Source: Eledone cirrhosa
Taxonomy: Eukaryota
Length of the DNA stretch: 64,000 bases
Reading direction: 5' to 3'
Assembly: GCA_964016885.1 (NCBI GenBank)
Contig: OZ024741.1
Coordinates: 38,440,001 to 38,504,000, forward strand
In this document: positions 2,886-49,809 of the stretch, piece after piece
Position numbering within the stretch: position 1 is the first letter of the stretch
Layout: each line of letters opens with the position of its first letter
Program-made: the position numbers and the translations under genes
The notes under the pieces: model-generated
Seen by the model: the letters and a program-made list of their open reading frames with translations, nothing else
The model's database searches: none
Told to the model about the DNA's origin: nothing

Positions 2886-3493
2886 CACCATATATGTATG
2901 TATGCTTATATATATATGCATGTATGCATTTATGCATGTATGTATGTATGTATGTATGTATGCATATATGTATTTATTTAGGTGTGCATGTATGTATGTA
3001 TGTGTGTTTGTATGCATGTAAGTGTATATATATGTACGTACGTATGCAAATGTGTATATGTATACATGTATGTATGCATGTATGTATGCATATGCATGCA
3101 TACACACACGGATATATGTATACATACATACACATATACATACATACATATATAAAGTCATACATTCTTACTTAAATACATACATAGATACATAATTAGG
3201 ACATTACAAATACAAACCATTAATGGAACTGTAAGAATATGTAGAGGATTCCAGAAATTTATCATATAATTGTATATATACATGTATAGATATATAAATA
3301 TATATTCATGCACATATTGAAAGATTGAAGAATAACATGGTCGGCTGTACAAAAAGGGTTTTATTCCTCGTATTAATAATTGTTTCATTGATCAAAGGCC
3401 ACTAATCAGTCGAAGTTGCGTCACTCGACCTTAAATACAGTGTGTGTCTCTGATAGATTCATCGAGCTCAAAACATAAAAAAGAAGTATATAG

Positions 3494-6400
3494 ACATCCA
3501 TAGCACAGCCATACACACATACACACACCCATACACTAATATATATAATGACATCCATACAGACAGACATACAGACATCCATACATCCATACAGTAGTAT
3601 ATATAATGACATCCATAGCACAGTCATACACACATCTACACATCCATACAATAGTATATATAATGACATCCATAGCACAGCCATACACACATCCATACAT
3701 CCATACAGTAGTATATATAATGACATCCATAGCACAGCCATACACACATCCATACATCCATACAATAGTCTATATAATGACATCCATAGCACAGTCATAC
3801 ACACATCCATACATCCATACAGTAGTATATATAATGACATCCATAGGACAGTCATACACACATCCATACATCCATACAGTAGTATATATAATGACATCCA
3901 AAGCACAGCCATACATACATCCATACATCCATACAGGAGTATATATAATGACATCCATAGCACAGCCATACACACATCCATACATCCATACAGTAGTATA
4001 TATAATGACATCCATAGCACAGCCATACACAAATCTACACATACATACAGTAGTATATATAATGACATCATAGCACAGACATACACACATCCTTACATCC
4101 ATACAGTAGTATATATAATGACATCATAGCACAGCCATACACACATCCATACATCCATACAGTAGTATATATAATGACATCCATAGCACAGCCATACACA
4201 CATCCATACATCCTTACAGTAGTATATAGAATGACATCCATAGCACAGTCATACACACATCCATACATCCATACAGTAGTATCTATATAATGAAATACAT
4301 AGCACAGTCATACACACATCTATACATCCATACAGTAGTATCTATAATGACGTCCATAGCACAGTCATACACACATCTATACATACATACAGTAGTATAT
4401 ATAATGACATCCATAGCACTGCCCTACACACATCTATACATCCATACAGTAGTCTATATAATGACATCCATAGCACTGTCATACACACATCCATACATCC
4501 ATACAGTAGTATATATAATGACATCCATACCACAGTCATACACACATCCATACATCCATACAGTAGTCTATATAATGACATCCATACCACAGCCATACAC
4601 ACATCTATACATCCATACAGTTGTATATATAATGACATCCATAGCACAGCCATACACACATCTATACATCCATACACTAGTATATAGAATGACATACATA
4701 GCACAGTCATACACACATATATACATCCATACAGTAGTATATATAATGACATCCATAGCACAGTCATACACACATCCATACATACATACAGTAGTATATA
4801 TAATGCCATCCATAGCACAGTCATACACACATCCATCCATACATACAGTAGTATATATAATGACATCCATAGCACAGTCATACATACATCTATACATCCA
4901 TACAGTAGTCTATATAATGACATCCATACCACAGCCATACACACATACATACATACATACATACAGTAGTATATAGAATGACATCCATAGCACAGTCATA
5001 CACACATCCTTACATCCATACAGTAGTATATATAATGACATCCATACCACAGCCATACACACATCCATACATCCATACAGTAGTCTATATAATGACATAC
5101 ATAGCACAGTCATACACACATCTATACATCCATACAGTAGTATATATAATGACATCCATACCACAGACATACACACATCTATACATCCATACAGTAGTAT
5201 ATATAATGACATACATAGCACAGTCATACACACATCCATACATCCATGCACTAGTATATATAATGACGTCCATAGCACAGTCATACGCACATGCATACAT
5301 CCATACAGTAGTATATATAATGACATCCATAGCACAGCCATACACACATCTATACATACATACAGTAGTATATATAATGACATCCATCGCACAGTCATAC
5401 ACACATCTATACATCCATACAGTAGTATATATAATGACATCCATACCACAGCCATACACACATCCATACATCCATACTGTAGTATATATAATGACATCCA
5501 TAGCACAGTCATACACACGTTTATACATCCATACAGCAGTATATATAATGACATCAATAGAACAGCCATACACACATCTATACATCCATACAGTAGTATA
5601 TATAATGACATCCATAGCACAGCCATACACACATCCATACATCCATAGACTAGTATATATAATGACATCCATACCACAGCCATACACACATCTATACATC
5701 CATAGAGTAGTATATATAATGACATCCATAGCACAGCCATACACACATCTATACATCCATACAGTAGTATATATAATGATATCCATAGCACAGCCATACA
5801 CACATCCATACATCCATACACTAGTATATATAATGACATCCATACCACAGCCATACACACATCTATACATCCATACAGTAGTATATATAATTACATCCAT
5901 CGCACAGCCATACACACATCTATACATCCATACAGTAGTATATATAATGACATCCATACCACAGTCATACACACATCAATACCTCCATACAGTAGTATAT
6001 ATAATGACATCCATAGCACAGTCATACACACATCCATACATCCATACAGTAGTATATATAATTACATCCATAGCACTGTTATACACACATCCATACATCC
6101 ATACAGTAGTATATATAAAGACATCCATAGCACTGCCATACACACATCCACACATCCATACAGTAGTATATATAATGACATCCATAGCACTGTTATACAC
6201 ACATACATACATCCATACTGTAGTATATATAATGACATCCATAGCACAGTCATACACACATCCATACATACTGTAGTATATATAATGACATCCATAGCAC
6301 AGTCATACACACATCCATACATCCATACAGTAGTATATATAATGACATCCATAGCACAGCCATACACACATCTATACATCCATACAGTAGTATATATAAT

Positions 6401-9400
6401 GACATCCATAGCACAGCCATACCCACATCTATACATCCATACAGTAGTCTATATAATGACATCCATAGCACAGCCATACACACATCTATACATCCATACA
6501 GTAGTATATATAATGACATCCATAGCACAGTCATACACACATCCATACATACATACAGTAGTATATATAATGACATCCATACCACAGTCATACACACATC
6601 CATACATCCATACAGTAGTATATATAATGACATCCATAGCACAGTCATACACACATCCATACATCCATACTGTAGTATATATAATGACATCCATAGCACA
6701 GCCATACACACATCCATACATCCATATAGTAGTATATATAATGACATCCATAGCACAGCCATACACACATCCATATATCTATACATCCATATAGTAATAT
6801 ATATAATGACATCCATACCACAGCCATACACACATCAATACATACATACAGTAGTCTATATAATGACATCCATAGCACAGCCATACACACATCTATACAT
6901 CCATACAGTAGTTTATATAATGACGTCCATAGCACAGCCATACACACATCCATACATCCATACAGTAGTCTATATAATGACATCCATAGCACAGACATAC
7001 ACTCATCCGTACGTCCATACTGTAGTATATATAATGACATCCATAGCACATCCATACACACATGCATACATCCATACAGTAGTATATATAATGACATCCA
7101 TAGCACAGCCATACACACATCCATACATCCATACATCCATACACTATTAAATATAATGACATCCATAGCACAGCCATACACACATCCATACATCCATACA
7201 GTAGTATATATAATGACATCCGTACCACAGTCATACACACATCTATACATCGATACAGTAGTATATATAATGACATCCATAGCACAGCCATACACACATC
7301 CATACATACATACAGTAGTATATATAATGACATCCATAGCACAGCCATACACACATCCATACATCCATACAGTAGTATATATAATGACATCCATAGCACA
7401 GTCATACACACATCCATACATCCATAAAGTAGTATATATAATGACATCCATAGCACAGCCATACACACATCTTTACATCCATACAGTAGTCTATATAATG
7501 ACATCCATAGCACAGACATACACACATCCATACATCCATACTGTAGTATATATAATGACATCCATAGCACATCCATACACACATCCATACATCCATACAG
7601 TAGTATATATAATGACATCCATAGCACAGTCATACACACATCCATACATCCATACAGTAGTATATATAATGACATCCATAGCACAGCCATACACACATCT
7701 TTAGATCCATACAGTAGTATATAGAATGACATCCATAGCACAGCCATACACACATCCATACATCAATACAGTAGTCTATATAATGACATCCATACCACAG
7801 CCATACACACATCTATACATCGATACAGTAGTATATATAATGACATCCATAGCACAGCCATACACACATACATACATACATACAGTAGTATATATAATGG
7901 CATCCATAGCACAGCCATACACACATCTATACATCCATACAGTAGTATATATAATGCCATACATAGCTCAGTCATACACACAGCTATACATCCATACAGT
8001 AGTATATATAATGACATCATAGCACAGCCATACACACATCCTTACATCCATACAGTAGTATATATAATGACATCCATAGCACAGCCATAAACACATCCAT
8101 ACATCCATACAGTAGTATATATAATGACATCCATACCACAGCCATACACACATCCATACATCCATACAGTAGTATATATAATGACATCCATACCACAGTC
8201 ATACACACATCTATACATCCATACAGTAGTATATATAATGACATCCATAGCACAGTCATACACACATCCACACATCCATACACTAATGTATATAATGACG
8301 TCCATAGCACTGCCATACACACATCTATACATCCATACAGTAGTATATATAATGACATCCATAGCACAGCCATACACACATCTATATATCCATACAGTAG
8401 TATATATAATGACATCCATAGCACAGTCATACACACATCCACACATCCATACAGTAGTATATATAATGACATACATAGCACAGTCATACACACATCTATA
8501 CATCCATATAGTAGTATATATAATGACATCCATACCACAGTCATACACAAATCTATACATACATACAGTAGTATATATAATGACATCCATAGCACAGTCA
8601 TACACACATCCACACATCCATACACCCATCCATACATCCATAAAGTCGTATATATAATGACATCCATAGCACAGTCTTACACACATACATACATCCATAC
8701 AGTAGTATATATAATGACATCCATACCACAGTCATACACACATCCATACATCCATACAGTAGTATATATAATGACATCCATACCACAGTTATACACACAT
8801 CTATACATACATACAGTAGTATATATAATGAAATCCATACCACAGCCATACACACATCCATACATCCATACACTAGTATATATAATGACATCATAGCACA
8901 GCCATACACACATCTATACATCCATACTGTAGTATATATAATGACATCCATAGCACAGCCATACACACATCTATACATCCATACAGTAGTATATATAATG
9001 ACATCCATACCACAGTCATACACACATCTATACATCCATACAGTAGTATATAGAATGACATCCATAGCACAGTCATACACACATCCACACATCCATACAC
9101 TAGTGTATATAATGACGTCCATAGCACAGCCATACACACATCTATACATCTATACAGTAGTATATATAATGACATCCATAGCACAGTCATACACACATCC
9201 ACACATCCATACAGTAGTATATATAATGACATACATAGCACAGCCATACACACATCCATACATCCATACAGTAGTATATATAATGACATCCATACCACAG
9301 TCATACGCACATCTATACATCCCTACAGTAGTATATATAATGACATCCATAGCACAGCCATACACACATCTATACATCCATACAGTAGTATATATAATGA

Positions 9401-12290
9401 CATCCATAGCACAGCCATACACACATCTATACATCCATACAGTAGTATATATAATGATATCCATAGCACAGCCATACACACATCTATACATCCATACAGT
9501 AGTATATATAATGACATCCATAGCACAGTCATACACACATCTATACATCCATACAGTAGTATATATAATGACATCCATAGCAGAGCCATACACACATCCA
9601 TACATACATACAGTAGTATATATAATGACATCCATACCACAGCCATACACTCGTCTATAGATCCATACAGTAGTATATATAATGACATCCATAGCACAGT
9701 CATACACACATCTATACATCCATACAATAGTATATATAATGCCATCCATACCACAGTCATACACACATCCATACATACATACAGTAGTATATATAATGAC
9801 ATCCATAGCACAGCCATACACACAGCTACACATCCATACAGTAGTATATATAATGACATCCATAGCACAGCCATACAAGCATCTATACATCCATACAGTA
9901 GTATATATAATGACATCCATAGTACAGCCATACACACATCTATACATCCATACTGTAGTATATATAATGACATCCATAGCACAGCCATACACACATCTAT
10001 ACATCCATACAGTAGTATATATAATGACATCCATAGCACAGCCATACACACATCCATACATCCATACAGTAGTATATATAATGACATCACATCACAATCA
10101 TACACACATCTATACATCCATACACTAGTATATATAATGACATCCATAGCACAGTCATACACACATCCATACATCCATACTGTAGTATATATATAATGAC
10201 ATCCATACCACAGCCATACACCCATCCATACATCCAGAAAGTGGTATATATAATGACATCCATAGCACAGCCATACACACATCCATACATACATACAGAA
10301 GTATATAGAATGACATTCATAGCACAGTCATACACACATCTATACATCCATACAGTAGTATATATAATGACTCCCATAGCACAGCCATACACACATCTAT
10401 ACATCCATACTGTAGTATATATAATGACATCCATAGCACAGCCATACACACATCCGTACATCCATACAGTAGTATATATAATGACATCCATAGCACAGCC
10501 ATAAACACATCTATACATCCATACAGTAGTATATATAATGACATCCATAGCACAGTCATACATACATACATACATACATCCATACTGTAGTATATATAAT
10601 GACACCCATAGCACAGGCATACACACATCTATACATCCATACTGTAGTATATATAATGACTTCCATAACACAGCCATACACTCATCTATACATCCATACA
10701 GTAGTATATATAATGACATCCATAGCACAGTCATACACACATACATACATCCATACAGTAGTATATATAATGACATCCATACCACAGTCATACACACATC
10801 TATACATCCATACAGTAGTATATATAATGACACCCATAGCACAGCCATACACACATTTATACATCCATACAGTAGTCTATATAATGACATCCATAGTACA
10901 GCCATACACACATCCATACATCTATACAGTAGTATATATAATGACATCCATAGCACAGCCATACACACATTTATACATCCATACACTAGTATATATAATG
11001 ACATCCATAGCACACTCATACACACATCTATACATCCATACAGTAGTAGATATAATGACATCCATAGCACAGCCATACACACATTTATACATCCATACAC
11101 TAGTATATATAATGACATCCATAGCACAGTCATACACACATCTATACATCCATACAGTAGTATATATAATGACATCCATAGCACAGCCATACACACATCA
11201 ATACCTCCATACAGTAGTATATATAACGACATCCATACCACAGTCATACACACATCTATACATCCATACAGTAGTATATATAATGACATCCATAGCACAG
11301 TCATACACACATCCATACATCCATACTGTAGTATATATAATGACATCCAAAGCACAGCCATACACATATCCATACATCCATACAGTAGTATATATAATGA
11401 CATCCATAGCACAGTCATACACACATCTATACATCCATACAGTAGTATATATAATGACATCCATAGCACAGCCATACACACATCCATACATCCATACAGT
11501 AGTATATATAATGACATCCATAGCACAGTCATACACACATCTATACATCCATACAGTAGTATATATAATGACATCCATAGCACAGTCATACACACATCTA
11601 TACATCCATACTGTAGTATATATAATGACATCCATAGAACAGTCATACACACATCTATACATCCATACTGTAGTATATATAATGACATCCATACCACAGT
11701 CATACACACATCTATACCTCCATACAGTAGTCTATATAATGACATCCATAGCACAGTCATACACACATCTATACATCCATACAGTAGTATATATAATGAC
11801 ATCCATACCACAGCCATACACACATCTATACATCCATACAGTAGTATATATAATGACATCCATAGCACAGCTATACACACATCTATACATCCATACAGTA
11901 GTCTATATAATGACATCCATACCACAGGCATACACACATCTATACATCCATACACTAGTATATATAATGACATCCATAGCACAGCCATACACACATCCAT
12001 ACATCCATACAGTAGTATATATAATGACATCCATAGCACAGTCATACACACATCCATACATCCATACTGTAGTATATATAATGACATCCAAAGCACAGCC
12101 ATACACATATCCATACATCCATACAGTAGTCTATATAATGACATCCATAGCACAGTCATACACACATCTATACATCCATACAGTAGTATATATAATGACA
12201 TCCATAGCACAGCCATACACACATCCATACATCCATACAGTAGTATATATAATGACATCCATAGCACTGCCATACACACATCCACACATA
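3494..12290. repeat. 57-bp minisatellite array, about 154 copies
   Basis: Consensus ATGACATCCATAGCACAGCCATACACACATCCATACATCCATACAGTAGTATATATA (57 nt = 19 codons), which explains the periodic MTSIAQPYTHPYIHTVVYI ORFs. Confidence 0.98.
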
Positions 12291-15334: not shown

Positions 15335-15453
15335 GATGTCACATAAAATTATATGTGTACTTGTTATAGCTTAATTGATATAAGTTAATATTTTGTCTTG
15401 TTTGTTAATCCACTGAACAGTGCTTTAGCTTGAGTCAGACGCTGTGACCCCAA

Positions 15454-15520
15454 GTGGACCAGCAGTACCGTTGGTAGGGTTCGAAACTGCCAAAGTCCAT
15501 CTCAACGGCCGATGACCCCT
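15454..15520 (+). ncRNA. Candidate non-circularly permuted hammerhead (substrate-GAAA-C box order), compact form
   Basis: GCAGT-A-CCGTTG (15462-73) ... GAA-ACTGC (15483-90) ... CAACGG-CCGATGA (15503-15). Extra helices GTGGAC/GTCCAT and AGGG/CCCT. Confidence 0.65.
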
Positions 15521-15688
15521 GGAGTCCTCCGTATTTCGTTTGTATTATTATTTTTTAAAAATAATTTTAAAATAATATATATATATTTTTTAATTTTCCC
15601 TTTTGCCTTGTTTTCGTTTGTTGTCTTATCCTAACTTAGTTAATTTACCTAAGTTTATCATATATATATATATATATAGGGAGAATGA

Positions 15689-22073: not shown

Positions 22074-24519
22074 CGGGTGTGTATGATTGTGTATAGAAGA
22101 TTATATTAATAAAAGGAATTCCAACTTTGTCTGATTTACTCGTTTTATTTAAAATCCTTTAAAATTATAATGATATTACCGTCAAATATAGACCACAACA
22201 TCATGAAGAAGATCAACAACCTGGCTTCAAAATTCTACAACTCACTTACTGATAATGAAAGAGACTACATCACCAGTTTTGAGCCAAAACCCAGCAACTT
22301 TTGTGGCTTACCGAAAATTCATGTCAAAAGAAATCCAACTGGCAGTAAAAGAATAAAAAAGTGAGTATATTAAATTACTACACCCCAAAGACTTAAAACT
22401 TAGACCTATTATAGCTGGTCCAACATGCCCTACCCACCGTCTAAGCAATTTTGTTGACATTATTTTGAAACCACCATGTATTTCCATACCCAGTTTCATC
22501 CCAGATGATATCGACTTCCTGTCCCAACTTCCCAAAACCACGGAAACGAATTTACTTCTACTTAGTTTTGATGTGGTAAGCATTTACACCAACATTATAC
22601 ATGATTTAGGAATAAAGGTGGTTAAATACTGGGTGGAAAAACAGAGAGTAGTGATACCCACCTGATTCACAGTGCCATTTATATTAGACGCAGTCAGACT
22701 TATTCTGGAAAACAACATATTCTTCGTCAATGGAAAGAATTACATCCAAATTAGAGGCACAGCGATGGGGACGAAGTTTGTTCCCGTTTACGCGAACTCT
22801 GTAATGGGATAATTAGAACAACAACTCAACCAAGGGATAGAGGAAAAATATAGAACTGAATTTAGAAAGTACATTGAAAAGTCTTGGAAGAGATACTTTG
22901 ACGACTGTTTCATCATCTGGACAGAATCTCCAGATACTCTGGATGAGTTCAATATCCTTCTGAATAACCTACACCCATCTCTCCAATTTACAAAAGAGAT
23001 GAGTAGTACCAAATTACCATTCCTAGATATAATGGTAATCAAAAACGACACCACCATTACCACGGATATATACTATAAACACACAGACACCCATCAATAT
23101 CTGAATTTTAAGCCGTGCCATCCACCTCATATAAAACGCAACATCCCATACTGCCTAGCCAAAAGAATTTGTACCATTGTAGAAGATACCAGGAACAAAC
23201 GCCTAACAGAACTGAGAGAATTTTTGCTCAAACAAAAATACCCACCTCTACTTATAGAAAATGGCATACACTGGGCTATAAAAATACCTATACAACAACT
23301 TAGGTCAACCCAAGGAAGAAGAAACCAAGAACTGGTCATACCATTTATAATGACACACAACCCATGTCACCAGAATATCTTTAACACCGCTAAAGCAAAC
23401 CTACCGATCATTGCTCAAAGTAATGAATTAAAAAGTTTAATCACAGACCGATCTTTGACTCTTAGTAAAAGACAGCCGAAAAATTTGAATCAATTACTAA
23501 CAAAGGCAAAGTTTTCCCTTAATAACAAAGACCAATCATTAACTGTATCTAAATGCAATGATAGTCGATGTGGCACATGTCAATCCATACACACTGGTCA
23601 ATATATGAAAACAAAAACTGGAAAAAATATTCCCGAAACCAAATATGAACTGCAAAAGCAGAAATCTAATTTACTGCATTAAATGCCCGAATTATGAAGA
23701 ACTATATGTCGGTCAATCTGGAAATGCACTATCGGAACGTGCACGGGTGCACCGACAGCAAATCAGAGACCCAAATGTCCGTCAGATACCCCTGAGTAAC
23801 CATCTAGCAACATGTGGTCAGAAAATATTTATAATATTTCCATTCTACAAACTACACAGCCCAAGTGAAATCAAGAGAAAAATTAAAGAAAAGAATTTTA
23901 TTGATGAATTCCAACCCAAGCTAAATGAAAATAATAATGCTTAGGGGTATTACTTCTACTATGACTACGCCTATAACCATGTCGACTGCCACCACTAACA
24001 ACAATAACAATAGTAATAATAAAAGTGATGTTGATGTTGATGATTACTGAAGATTTTTTATAAAAACCCTAGTAAATCCTATTTTCATCATTTCTAAAAA
24101 TAGCAAAACAATTGAAGCTTTGGATAGGGTCAAATAGATGTCGTTATACATGCTCAATCAGACCTGATGCCTAAACTAATCAGCTTTAGTAATCTAGTGA
24201 AACCACACAGCGATTGGTCGAAATACAGTTTGCAAAACTTAGCATTCTGTAGCCCCTTTTTACTGTATATAAGGCTCAGATTTTAGCCATCTCATTACAG
24301 TTGAATATTGACAACTTGACTGTCACCACTGAATATGAACCTGCGATTGCGAAAGCATGAAACTACTTGTTCAATTAACACTTAACATTTAATGTTCTAC
24401 CATAATATTTCATTCTAATATCATTATAATTTTAAAGGATTGTAAATAAAACGAGTAAATCAGACAAAGTTGGAATTCCTTTTATTAATATAATCTTCTA
24501 TACACAATAATACACACCC

Positions 24520-29042: not shown

Positions 29043-29144
29043 GTCCCAACGTCTTTCTTTAGCCGTTGCTCGCACCAACCGGAGGTATATGGTCTTTAAA
29101 GCGAAGAAATACCGATGATGCTTGGAAGAACACTGATGAAGGAC
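29043..29144 (+). ncRNA. Candidate non-circularly permuted hammerhead, extended form
   Basis: GGTAT-A-TGGTCTT...GAA-ATACC...AAGAACA-CTGATGA, plus GTCC/GGAC, CAACG/CGTTG, TCGC/GCGA and CCAA/TTGG. Confidence 0.65.
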
Positions 29145-29151
29145 CACTTTA

Positions 29152-29187
<36 letters not shown>

Positions 29188-30220: not shown

Positions 30221-30271
30221 CTCTTCCTTCTATGTTGTTTACTTGTCTCACTCGCTTTACGCGTTTCACTT

Positions 30272-30373
30272 GTCCCAATAGATTATTTTAGTTATTGCTC
30301 GCACCAACCTGAGGTATATGATTTTTAATGCGATGAAATACCAATGATCGTTGGCAAATCACTGATGAGGGAC
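30272..30373 (+). ncRNA. Candidate non-circularly permuted hammerhead, extended form
   Basis: GGTAT-A-TGATTT (30313-24), GAA-ATACC (30335-42), AAATCA-CTGATGA (30356-68), GTCCC/GGGAC, TCGC/GCGA, CCAAC/GTTGG. Confidence 0.75.
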
Positions 30374-30431
30374 TAATTTTATAATATGTAATCCATGTGC
30401 AACCATGCAGTATTCTTCTCCCCATGTTTTT

Positions 30432-34202: not shown

Positions 34203-34287
34203 CTAGTGATTTTGAAGCAAATCCTCCTTATTTAAATTAACTTTATCTGTTCAACGCTTTATAAGAGTCTGAGAGATCGGCTTCTTT

Positions 34288-34329
<42 letters not shown>

Positions 34330-34467
34330 AAGCCGATCTCTCAGCCTCTTATAAAGCGTTGAACAGAAAACGTTAATTTATATAATGATGTGCTCATGCG
34401 CAGGATGCTATAGAATAGCATATAAAATAGGGCAAAGACTCTGAAAAGAGGAAAAAAGAAGTTGCCT

Positions 34468-41930: not shown

Positions 41931-42546
41931 ATCGTTTGGTAAATCACTGATGAGGGACTCACTTTATAACATGTTATCCATGTGCAACCAGCAGTATTCT
42001 TCTCACCCATATTTTTCATATATTTACCCAAACTGCAATTCTGTGTTTCTCTCTTTCTCTCTTACTGCTCCCTCGTTCTCTCTGTTTCTCTTACTTTCTT
42101 TCGTCCCCTCTGCCATGTCAGTTAACTCTTTCTCTCTACTGACCTCTTCCTCGCACTCCCACTCACTCAGTCCCTATTTCTCCCCTTCTTTCTTCCTCCC
42201 GTTCGCTGGGAAAACGGTTTTCATTCTTTCTTACACCGGATTCACTAGCGAAAGGTCTGTTTTCTGACTTGCTCATATATTCACACAGCTTATGCTGAAA
42301 GAATATCTATGTTGCTTGTGTTTATTTCCATCTTCGGTTAGCTTTCCCCTGTGTTGTTTACTTGTCTAACTCGCTTTACGCATTTCTATCGTCCTAATAA
42401 CTTATTTTAGTTATTATCGCTCCAACGTGAGGTATATGATTTTTAATGCGATGAAATACCCATGATCGTTTGGTAAATCACTGATGAGTGACTCATTTTA
42501 TAACATGTTATCCATGTGCAACCAAGAGTATTCTTCTCACCCATAT

Positions 42547-48924: not shown

Positions 48925-49028
48925 ATTCCTCATCAGTTGTCTACTGGGGGTCTCGGATATTTCTACGCTTTAAAGACAAGATATCTACTGCCCAGAGCGT
49001 CAATAACTGGATACGTTATTGGGGAAAC
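48925..49028 (-). ncRNA. Candidate non-circularly permuted hammerhead (AUC triplet)
   Basis: Reverse complement GATAT-C-TTGTCT...GAA-ATATC...AGACAA-CTGATGA. Confidence 0.7.
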
Positions 49029-49622
49029 GGAGGAGGGAGGGACGGAAAAAAAAGGGAAGAGAAGAGAGAAAACAGTGAAAAAACAACAACAATGCGACCA
49101 ACTGTGAAGGCGAGAGAAAAGACACACGTCTGACCCCAGTGAGTTGTAAGTGAGAAAAGGACTACTAGAGGGTGGGGCGAGGTAAACAATGAGGTGGCAA
49201 GTAGAGAGAGGATGAGTGTAAGTGAGAGCTACCTTAAGCTACCTTAAATAACAACTACACAGCCATTTCTATTCTCCATATATTTTATCATGTTTTCGCT
49301 GTGACCCTTCTTCTCTCCCCTTCTACCTACCTATTTCGCTACTATTTACTCTCACCCCTCTTTCTTCCTCACCCTTTCTCCCTCTCACTTTCACTCATCC
49401 TCTCTCTGTCTGCCACCTCATTGTTTCCCTCGCCTGACCCTATAGTAGTCCTTTTCTCACTTAAAACTCGCTGGGGTCAGACGTGTGTCCTTTCTCTCGC
49501 CCACACAGTCGAGTGGTTTTGGATTTTCTTACCGTAAGTTGCTCGCACATTGCTCGGTTTGTTGTTTTTTGTCGCTGTTTTCTCTCTTCTCTTCCCTTTT
49601 GTTTTCCTTCCCTTCCTCCTCC

Positions 49623-49728
49623 GTTTTCCCAATAACTTATCCAGTTATTGACGCTCTGGGCGGTAGATATATTGTCTTTAAAGCGTAGAAATATCCGACA
49701 CCCCCAGTAGACAACTGATGAGGAAAAC
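49623..49728 (+). ncRNA. Candidate non-circularly permuted hammerhead, best-paired copy
   Basis: GTTTTCC/GGAAAAC, CAATAAC/GTTATTG, ACGC/GCGT, CTGGG/CCCAG, GATAT/ATATC and TTGTCT/AGACAA are all perfect. GAAA at 49688, CTGATGA at 49715. Confidence 0.78.
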
Positions 49729-49809
49729 TCTCCCCGTTCTTGCTTTCTTCTTATTCCCACTCCATTTTAAGCTACCTTAAAAGCAACTACACAGCCATTT
49801 CTACTCTCC

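Follow-up and report, generated by a model that had tools for sequence, protein, structure and literature searches.

The question raised by this locus is what kind of self-cleaving RNA, if any, is encoded at positions 15454-15520 of a 64,000-nt stretch of the Eledone cirrhosa genome (GCA_964016885.1, contig OZ024741.1, positions 38,440,001 to 38,504,000, forward strand; the whole stretch is referred to as the window). A sequence-only reading had described these 67 nt as a compact, minimal hammerhead ribozyme with permuted blocks and a simple stem II, AGGG/CCCT. The stems I (6 bp) and III (5 bp), the GUA triplet, the GAAA, and the core with U4C that it named were all confirmed in the sequence, and the extra helix was located at 15452-15459/15495-15502. 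The motif is of the non-circularly permuted hammerhead type, as proposed, and its helices pair across ten families. The boundary and stem II were revised: the RNA module of the window copy covers approximately 118 nt (15408-15525; 97-128 nt in the other families), so it is neither minimal nor compact, and the 5' strand of stem II lies upstream of block S (Table 1). This is likely a new hammerhead topology, decayed in the window copy and carried by F1, a non-autonomous retroelement inserted in TA microsatellites. The architecture as drawn is very probably right.

Table 1. Features in the window, with the pairing found in the copy under study (position 1 is the first letter of the window).
Feature	Position	Strand	Remarks
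F1 copy	15335..15660	+	5'-truncated, between (TA)n tracts
Closing helix IIa, upstream strand	15408..15416	+	partner: bases after the core
Hairpin IIb of the four-way junction	15417..15445	+	basal pairs 6/6 (15417-22/15440-45)
True stem II (IIc), 5' strand	15446..15451	+	5/6 pairs; single mismatch at 15480
Stem I-II interaction helix (pseudoknot), strand 1	15452..15459	+	7/8 pairs
Block S	15462..15473	+	stem III 3' strand, H17 = A15467 inside the GUA triplet, stem I 3' strand; stem III 15462-15466/15486-15490, 5/5 pairs
Block G	15477..15490	+	stem II 3' strand, GAAA 15483-86, stem III 5' strand
Interaction helix, strand 2	15495..15502	+
Stem I 5' strand and core CCGAUGA	15503..15515	+	core 15509-15515, U4C at 15510; stem I 15468-15473/15503-15508, 6/6 pairs
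Closing helix IIa, downstream strand	15516..15525	+	IIa decayed: distal pairs 5/6, junction pairs 1/2
F2 copy	49615..49745	+	same architecture, canonical core; inverted partner at 48926-49036, minus strand
F3 copy	42380..42510	+	young family, same architecture, canonical core
F3 relatives	30261-30389, 29070-29152, 41931-41976

The blocks of the window copy follow the order S-G-C. In the F1 alignment, 15446-15451 forms the complement of the strand that precedes GAAA, this upstream strand follows the hairpin 15417-15445 with zero gap, and the hairpin follows the strand 15408-15416. G15446 would be the 10.1 base, and the cut is predicted 3' of A15467, from hammerhead chemistry and by analogy with known hammerheads (PMC10085705).

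An ordinary minimal 67-nt type-SGC hammerhead with a contiguous stem II would also have its blocks in S-G-C order and a linker of 3 nt (PMC10085705), and the AGGG/CCCT helix can form in the window copy (4/4 pairs), but three unpaired bases would then separate it from G12 and precede GAAA. The sequence-only reading had named paralogues as the check on its helices; in 52 F1 copies, the upstream IIc was paired in 280/310 cells and the stem II originally proposed in only 161/207. The latter has no counterpart in other families. Across ten representatives, a contiguous stem II was paired in 15/40 cells, with the first position paired in 1/10 families, whereas the upstream hairpin abuts IIc without a gap in 10/10. 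A contiguous stem II is therefore regarded as very improbable. Under the split arrangement, a 67-nt construct is predicted to be inactive, position 4 changed or not, because the strand supplying the 10.1 base is missing from it.

The ten representatives were F1, F2, F3, and H1 from E. cirrhosa, a 38-locus family from a metagenome collection, and the loci L145, L185, L189, L245, and L248. They were intact, hand-picked copies. Pairing helped to fix the registers, and for 6/10 the search pattern had partly demanded IIc; subfamily H2 and locus L110 (decayed; automated assignment failed) were left out. Pairs were found in 50/50 cells for stem I (up to five pair types per position), 40/40 for stem III, 50/50 for IIc, 39/40 for IIb, and 20/20 for IIa, together 199/200. 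The pair under G12 was G-C in 8/10 representatives (A-U in F2 and F3) while the base after A9 was free (C, G, U, or A), which identifies IIc as stem II. The interaction helix is predicted to have 4-15 bp in the other families. GAAA, an invariant A15.1-U16.1, and an H17 other than G were present in all ten, and the core CUGANGA was canonical in 9/10, U4C being found in the window copy and most F1 copies. The linear order C, S, G was not found: the core comes last, and only the stem II and interaction strands precede S. Nor did the pairing support an unbroken block C with a stem II strand directly after CUGANGA, the first contiguous pair forming in 1/10 families.

F2 and F3 (the larger family of the sequence-only reading) form the same six helices as F1 with different sequences; F2 has one unpaired base before GAAA. 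BLAST similarity between F1 and the other window families was absent, so the earlier view that the locus independently supports their fold was borne out. A further decayed family of the same arrangement was noticed in the E. cirrhosa genome (L110, 1400-1640, minus strand).

Chance complementarity in a repeat-rich window was weighed with shuffled sequences, covariance models, and folding. A basic descriptor (core, GAAA, stems I and III, S-G-C order) gave 5 window matches versus 12 in 100 dinucleotide shuffles; the fifth is presumably the window copy, this test giving a count only. The full six-helix descriptor gave 4 window matches versus 1 in 100 shuffles, and the window copy was not among the four owing to its stem II mismatch. 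Folded by itself, in a program that does not handle pseudoknots, the 67-nt stretch was no more stable than its shuffles (z 0.12), and Rfam gave no hammerhead covariance match in 15370-15545 (one unrelated match, E 6.4). Over the whole window, the Rfam search was swamped by microRNA matches on AT repeats. Minimum free energy folds of F1, in which pseudoknots are not modelled, did not yield the proposed structure. Against chance stand the six-helix counts and the recurrence of the same helices in unrelated families and other organisms, and the pair variation across families refutes it; its probability is practically nil.

F1 is a dispersed repeat of the 3.0-Gb genome, with 1692 first-look candidates (not copy counts), of which 40 were scored and 30 retrieved. 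The full unit is approximately 490-550 bp long and inserted in TA tracts, with a tandem spacing of approximately 490 bp at one locus (L030). Circularly permuted partial tandems and inverted truncated copies were found; no ORF was seen in the units, nor an EN and RT ORF in cis. The copies differed from the majority by 10.9% on average (52 copies), the window copy by 6.8%, and the differences look like neutral decay. Stems I, III, and IIc and the core were all intact in 6/52 copies. The F1 units, window positions 15335-15352 included, also carry a TGACGTCA palindrome and TATA-like boxes, which lie approximately 70-110 nt before the ribozyme and may form an internal promoter.

U4C had been read as either decay or a variant. 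Exact genome-wide counts of the position 4 context in F1 were 103 CCG, 39 CTG, and 18 CCA; C4 is the majority state of the family (103/160 exact matches), so the variant half of that reading stands and decay of the window copy does not account for it. Since CpG decay on the opposite strand yields CCA, roughly half of the CTG copies could likewise have arisen by decay; there may also be a minority lineage with U4. A natural U4C hammerhead variant was much slower in vitro, yet supported viroid infectivity (PMC3088659). The window copy is probably a weak or dead ribozyme, an aged relic, and useful cleavage by it is doubtful. In F1, the final two bases of the core and the three after them (15514-15518) can alternatively pair with the stem II 3' strand 15478-15482 (210/260 cells), which would hide G8-A9 and could act as an off state.

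First-look candidates numbered 2197 for F2 and 1041 for F3 (again not copy counts). The top F3 matches were 98% identical, and the tandem spacing was 533 bp. When 5' truncation points were compared with the predicted cut site, 2-3 of 11 F1 loci (28 rows) appeared to end at the site; in F3, approximately 13 of the 40 loci in the first 100/603 rows (hand-counted) appeared to do so, but a TATA microhomology merges five to six positions. PLE ORFs near two F3 copies (L081, L082) were considered as partners and rejected as chance neighbours, since TA tracts and other sequence intervene.

The same module was found in coding elements. On the metagenome contigs L145 and L189, it sits where an RLE-type retrotransposon ORF ends, a flank also found in L185; at L145, the ORF of another copy starts approximately 110 nt after the core, and Pfam gave RVT_1 and zf-RVT, both below the cut-off. 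The same ribozyme was also noticed at an RLE-type ORF end on a further contig (L193). An RLE domain search of the E. cirrhosa genome gave 150 scored matches, and 30 loci were retrieved. The H1 ribozyme region lies right after the ORF in 21/30, with a IIa of 12 bp; the H1 unit is approximately 3.6 kb long with the split-core ribozyme after the stop codon (L252-L281 and L282, G000:C2:317446500-317456000). Five of the 30 (L253, L266, L274, L278, and L280) were assigned by eye to a decayed second subfamily, and a strict automated six-helix test was passed by 5/30. At H1, RNAfold recovered IIa (12 bp), the hairpin, the interaction helix, and stem III.

On the 3' side, the RLE copies stop at a fixed point approximately 30 nt beyond the ribozyme, and the 3' product is missing from their 5' ends; judging from these ends, the template was no released cleavage product. 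A head-to-tail arrangement was found in 2/20 H1 regions, and head-to-tail copies occur at L282, L296, and L145. The RLE domain received no name from a PDB sequence search and the protein atlas; by its motifs, the element may be HERO-like. A self-cleaving motif at the element boundary is common to these and other ribozyme-bearing RLE-type (R2-superfamily) LINEs, but R2 has a 5' HDV-like ribozyme, whereas the loci described here have a permuted hammerhead after the stop codon.

The metagenome collection was scanned with a pattern that demanded IIc, GAAAC, and the core only, and at least 120 loci and one viral-contig match were obtained. Among the matches listed, block S was present in 31/121 collection loci, and 38/121 belonged to one family; the viral match had no block S. 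In the other 83 loci, again among the matches listed, the junction was present in 5/5 with block S versus 14/78 without it, and one of these 14 was a decayed L185 relative. At L112 and L113, the pattern matched and the upstream parts were absent.

Among published hammerheads, type SGC (HRIMA-1 and variants; Eckert et al. 2023, PMC10085705) shares the S-G-C order, the short stem I-II linker, the I-II helix, and the core. Its block C is unbroken; here, the stem II 5' strand lies upstream of S, and a four-way junction sits at A9/10.1. The type-SGC RNAs came from metatranscriptomes and from no known-organism genomes except one GCS candidate (PMC10085705), while those described here are genomic repeats in animals. 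Type CSG, known from five soil-DNA sequences (PMC10085705, supplementary table), has the same strand cycle: interaction strand, I, core, II, interaction strand, III-H-I, II-GAAA-III. Here, the opening of the cycle lies between A9 and 10.1, and two additional helices close it. The published non-circular permutations (SGC and CSG) assume no break between A9 and 10.1 (PMC10085705). At this step, PLE hammerheads normally have an extra base (PMC4209133), and a viroid tolerates one (PMC3705267), which indicates that the step is flexible.

Animal non-LTR retrozymes and PLE hammerheads, as described in PMC4209133 and bioRxiv 10.64898/2026.07.22.740005, are likewise arranged as tandem, non-coding units a few hundred bases long, each with a single hammerhead, and are proposed to pass through circles. 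Those hammerheads are type I, often minimal and dimer-dependent, whereas full stems and a non-circular topology missed by type I descriptors are found here; F1 and F3 thus have the non-coding tandem unit of a non-LTR retrozyme without its type I hammerhead. No description of the split-core design was found in the literature searched (hammerhead permutations, Naiads, RLE/HERO, and junctions; mostly outside subscription journals), nor a mention in the available parts of PMC13725137, PMC13282606, PMC7650587, and the 2026 retrozyme preprint. If confirmed, the design would break the published rule against interruption of the CUGANGA block and would extend non-circular permutations from a few environmental contigs to the genomes of animals, probably in large copy number.

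Naiad Penelope-like elements offer a comparison. They were reported without canonical hammerheads, and the accessible part of the article has 10 'HHR_core' and 8 'HHR_half_core' labels (PMC8557442). In the available parts of its supplement, examined by eye and non-exhaustively, the split form was seen in the 3' UTR of 10 Naiad consensi: Naiad_Plae; Naiad_Obim and Naiad_Ovul, at their ends, and Naiad_Esco, also at its end but as a loose match; three records that end ahead of Naiad_Aacu, Naiad_Anas, and Naiad-1_Movir (names taken from the next header); the record before Naiad_Plae; and records in supplement parts 8 (with a 2-bp stem I) and 19. The complete type CSG was seen by eye in five consensi in parts 13-15, including the end of Naiad-2_Nbra. 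Neither form was seen in the shown ends of Naiad_Omin and Naiad_Dcar, in a supplement table of at least 54 rows, and the F1, F2, and F3 motifs were not found in the available supplement. The apparent want of hammerheads in Naiads would gain a direct answer, and the soil-DNA CSG examples may, as a guess, derive from Naiad-like elements.

F1 resembles Naiads in its bias for TA insertion sites and in its partial tandems and inverted truncated copies, traits given for Naiads by Craig et al. 2021 (PMC8557442), and differs in that no ORF was seen in it. No autonomous partner of F1 was found with RT patterns in the genome or with BLAST against the RLE loci, to which F1 showed no BLAST link. Of two degenerate patterns for a Naiad RT, the first had 0 matches in the E. 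cirrhosa genome and the second 17, none Naiad-like once translated; Naiad RT motifs were absent from the retrieved loci. We lean towards a Naiad-type PLE as the F1 helper, an RLE-type LINE being an unlikelier candidate.

In the model that we draw from these pairings, IIc would stack under G12, the bases after A9 would cross into IIa, and IIa would stack on IIb to give the four-way junction. From the wiring, the core would be transcribed last, and cutting would need the whole module. Stem I would lie wholly in the 3' product, and stem III, IIc, the interaction helix, and IIa (approximately 25 bp) would bridge the cut, so that the RNA would stay nicked or religate rather than fall apart. Genomic copies would keep the whole motif since the products would stay paired after the cut. 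In head-to-tail F1 and F3 transcripts, two cuts would free a monomer, which might form a circle and template more than a single round of reverse transcription; this fits the circularly permuted partial tandems of both families. Cutting of tandem transcripts and circle formation have been proposed for PLEs (PMC4209133, available in part).

By analogy with hammerheads, intact members, of which F3, F2, and H1 supply natural copies, are strongly expected to cleave. The fold might now serve mainly as a 3' structure recognised by the reverse transcriptase, with cleavage slow, reversible, or lost, as could be argued from the whole motif being kept by genomic copies, the amplification of F1 with C4 as the majority state (103/160 exact matches), and the approximately 25 bp that would keep the products joined. 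However, CUGANGA, GAAA, A15.1-U16.1, and an H17 other than G are kept in 9/10 otherwise different families, which points to selection on catalysis; such a role alone is improbable, though compatible with the explanation preferred here. On balance, we favour that explanation. A wider reading, somewhat more probable than not, is that this topology, beyond the six block permutations, would be active and widespread in animals, would be, together with CSG, the missing ribozyme of Naiads, would be shared with RLE elements, and would make a reversible nick that keeps the products together instead of releasing them. One ribozyme design would then be found on two unrelated retrotransposon classes, and a ribozyme with products that stay paired could serve RNA circularisation.

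A minus-strand HDV-like motif was considered and rejected: its apparent G-U opening pair is merely the complement of H17/C3, and P3, P1.1, and J4/2 were not seen by eye. Ordinary type I, PLE-style hammerheads are suspected by eye at core positions 1381, 27197, and 54529 (plus strand) and 26456 (minus strand), and some type I-like motifs in the window have a palindromic stem III. A 289-aa Penelope-like RT fragment lies at 22813-23682 (plus strand), with no significant Pfam match; by its motifs, it is presumably Neptune-like. The window also contains a 57-bp satellite of approximately 154 copies (3493-12289) and a near-perfect inverted repeat flanking a TA tract (34232-34380).
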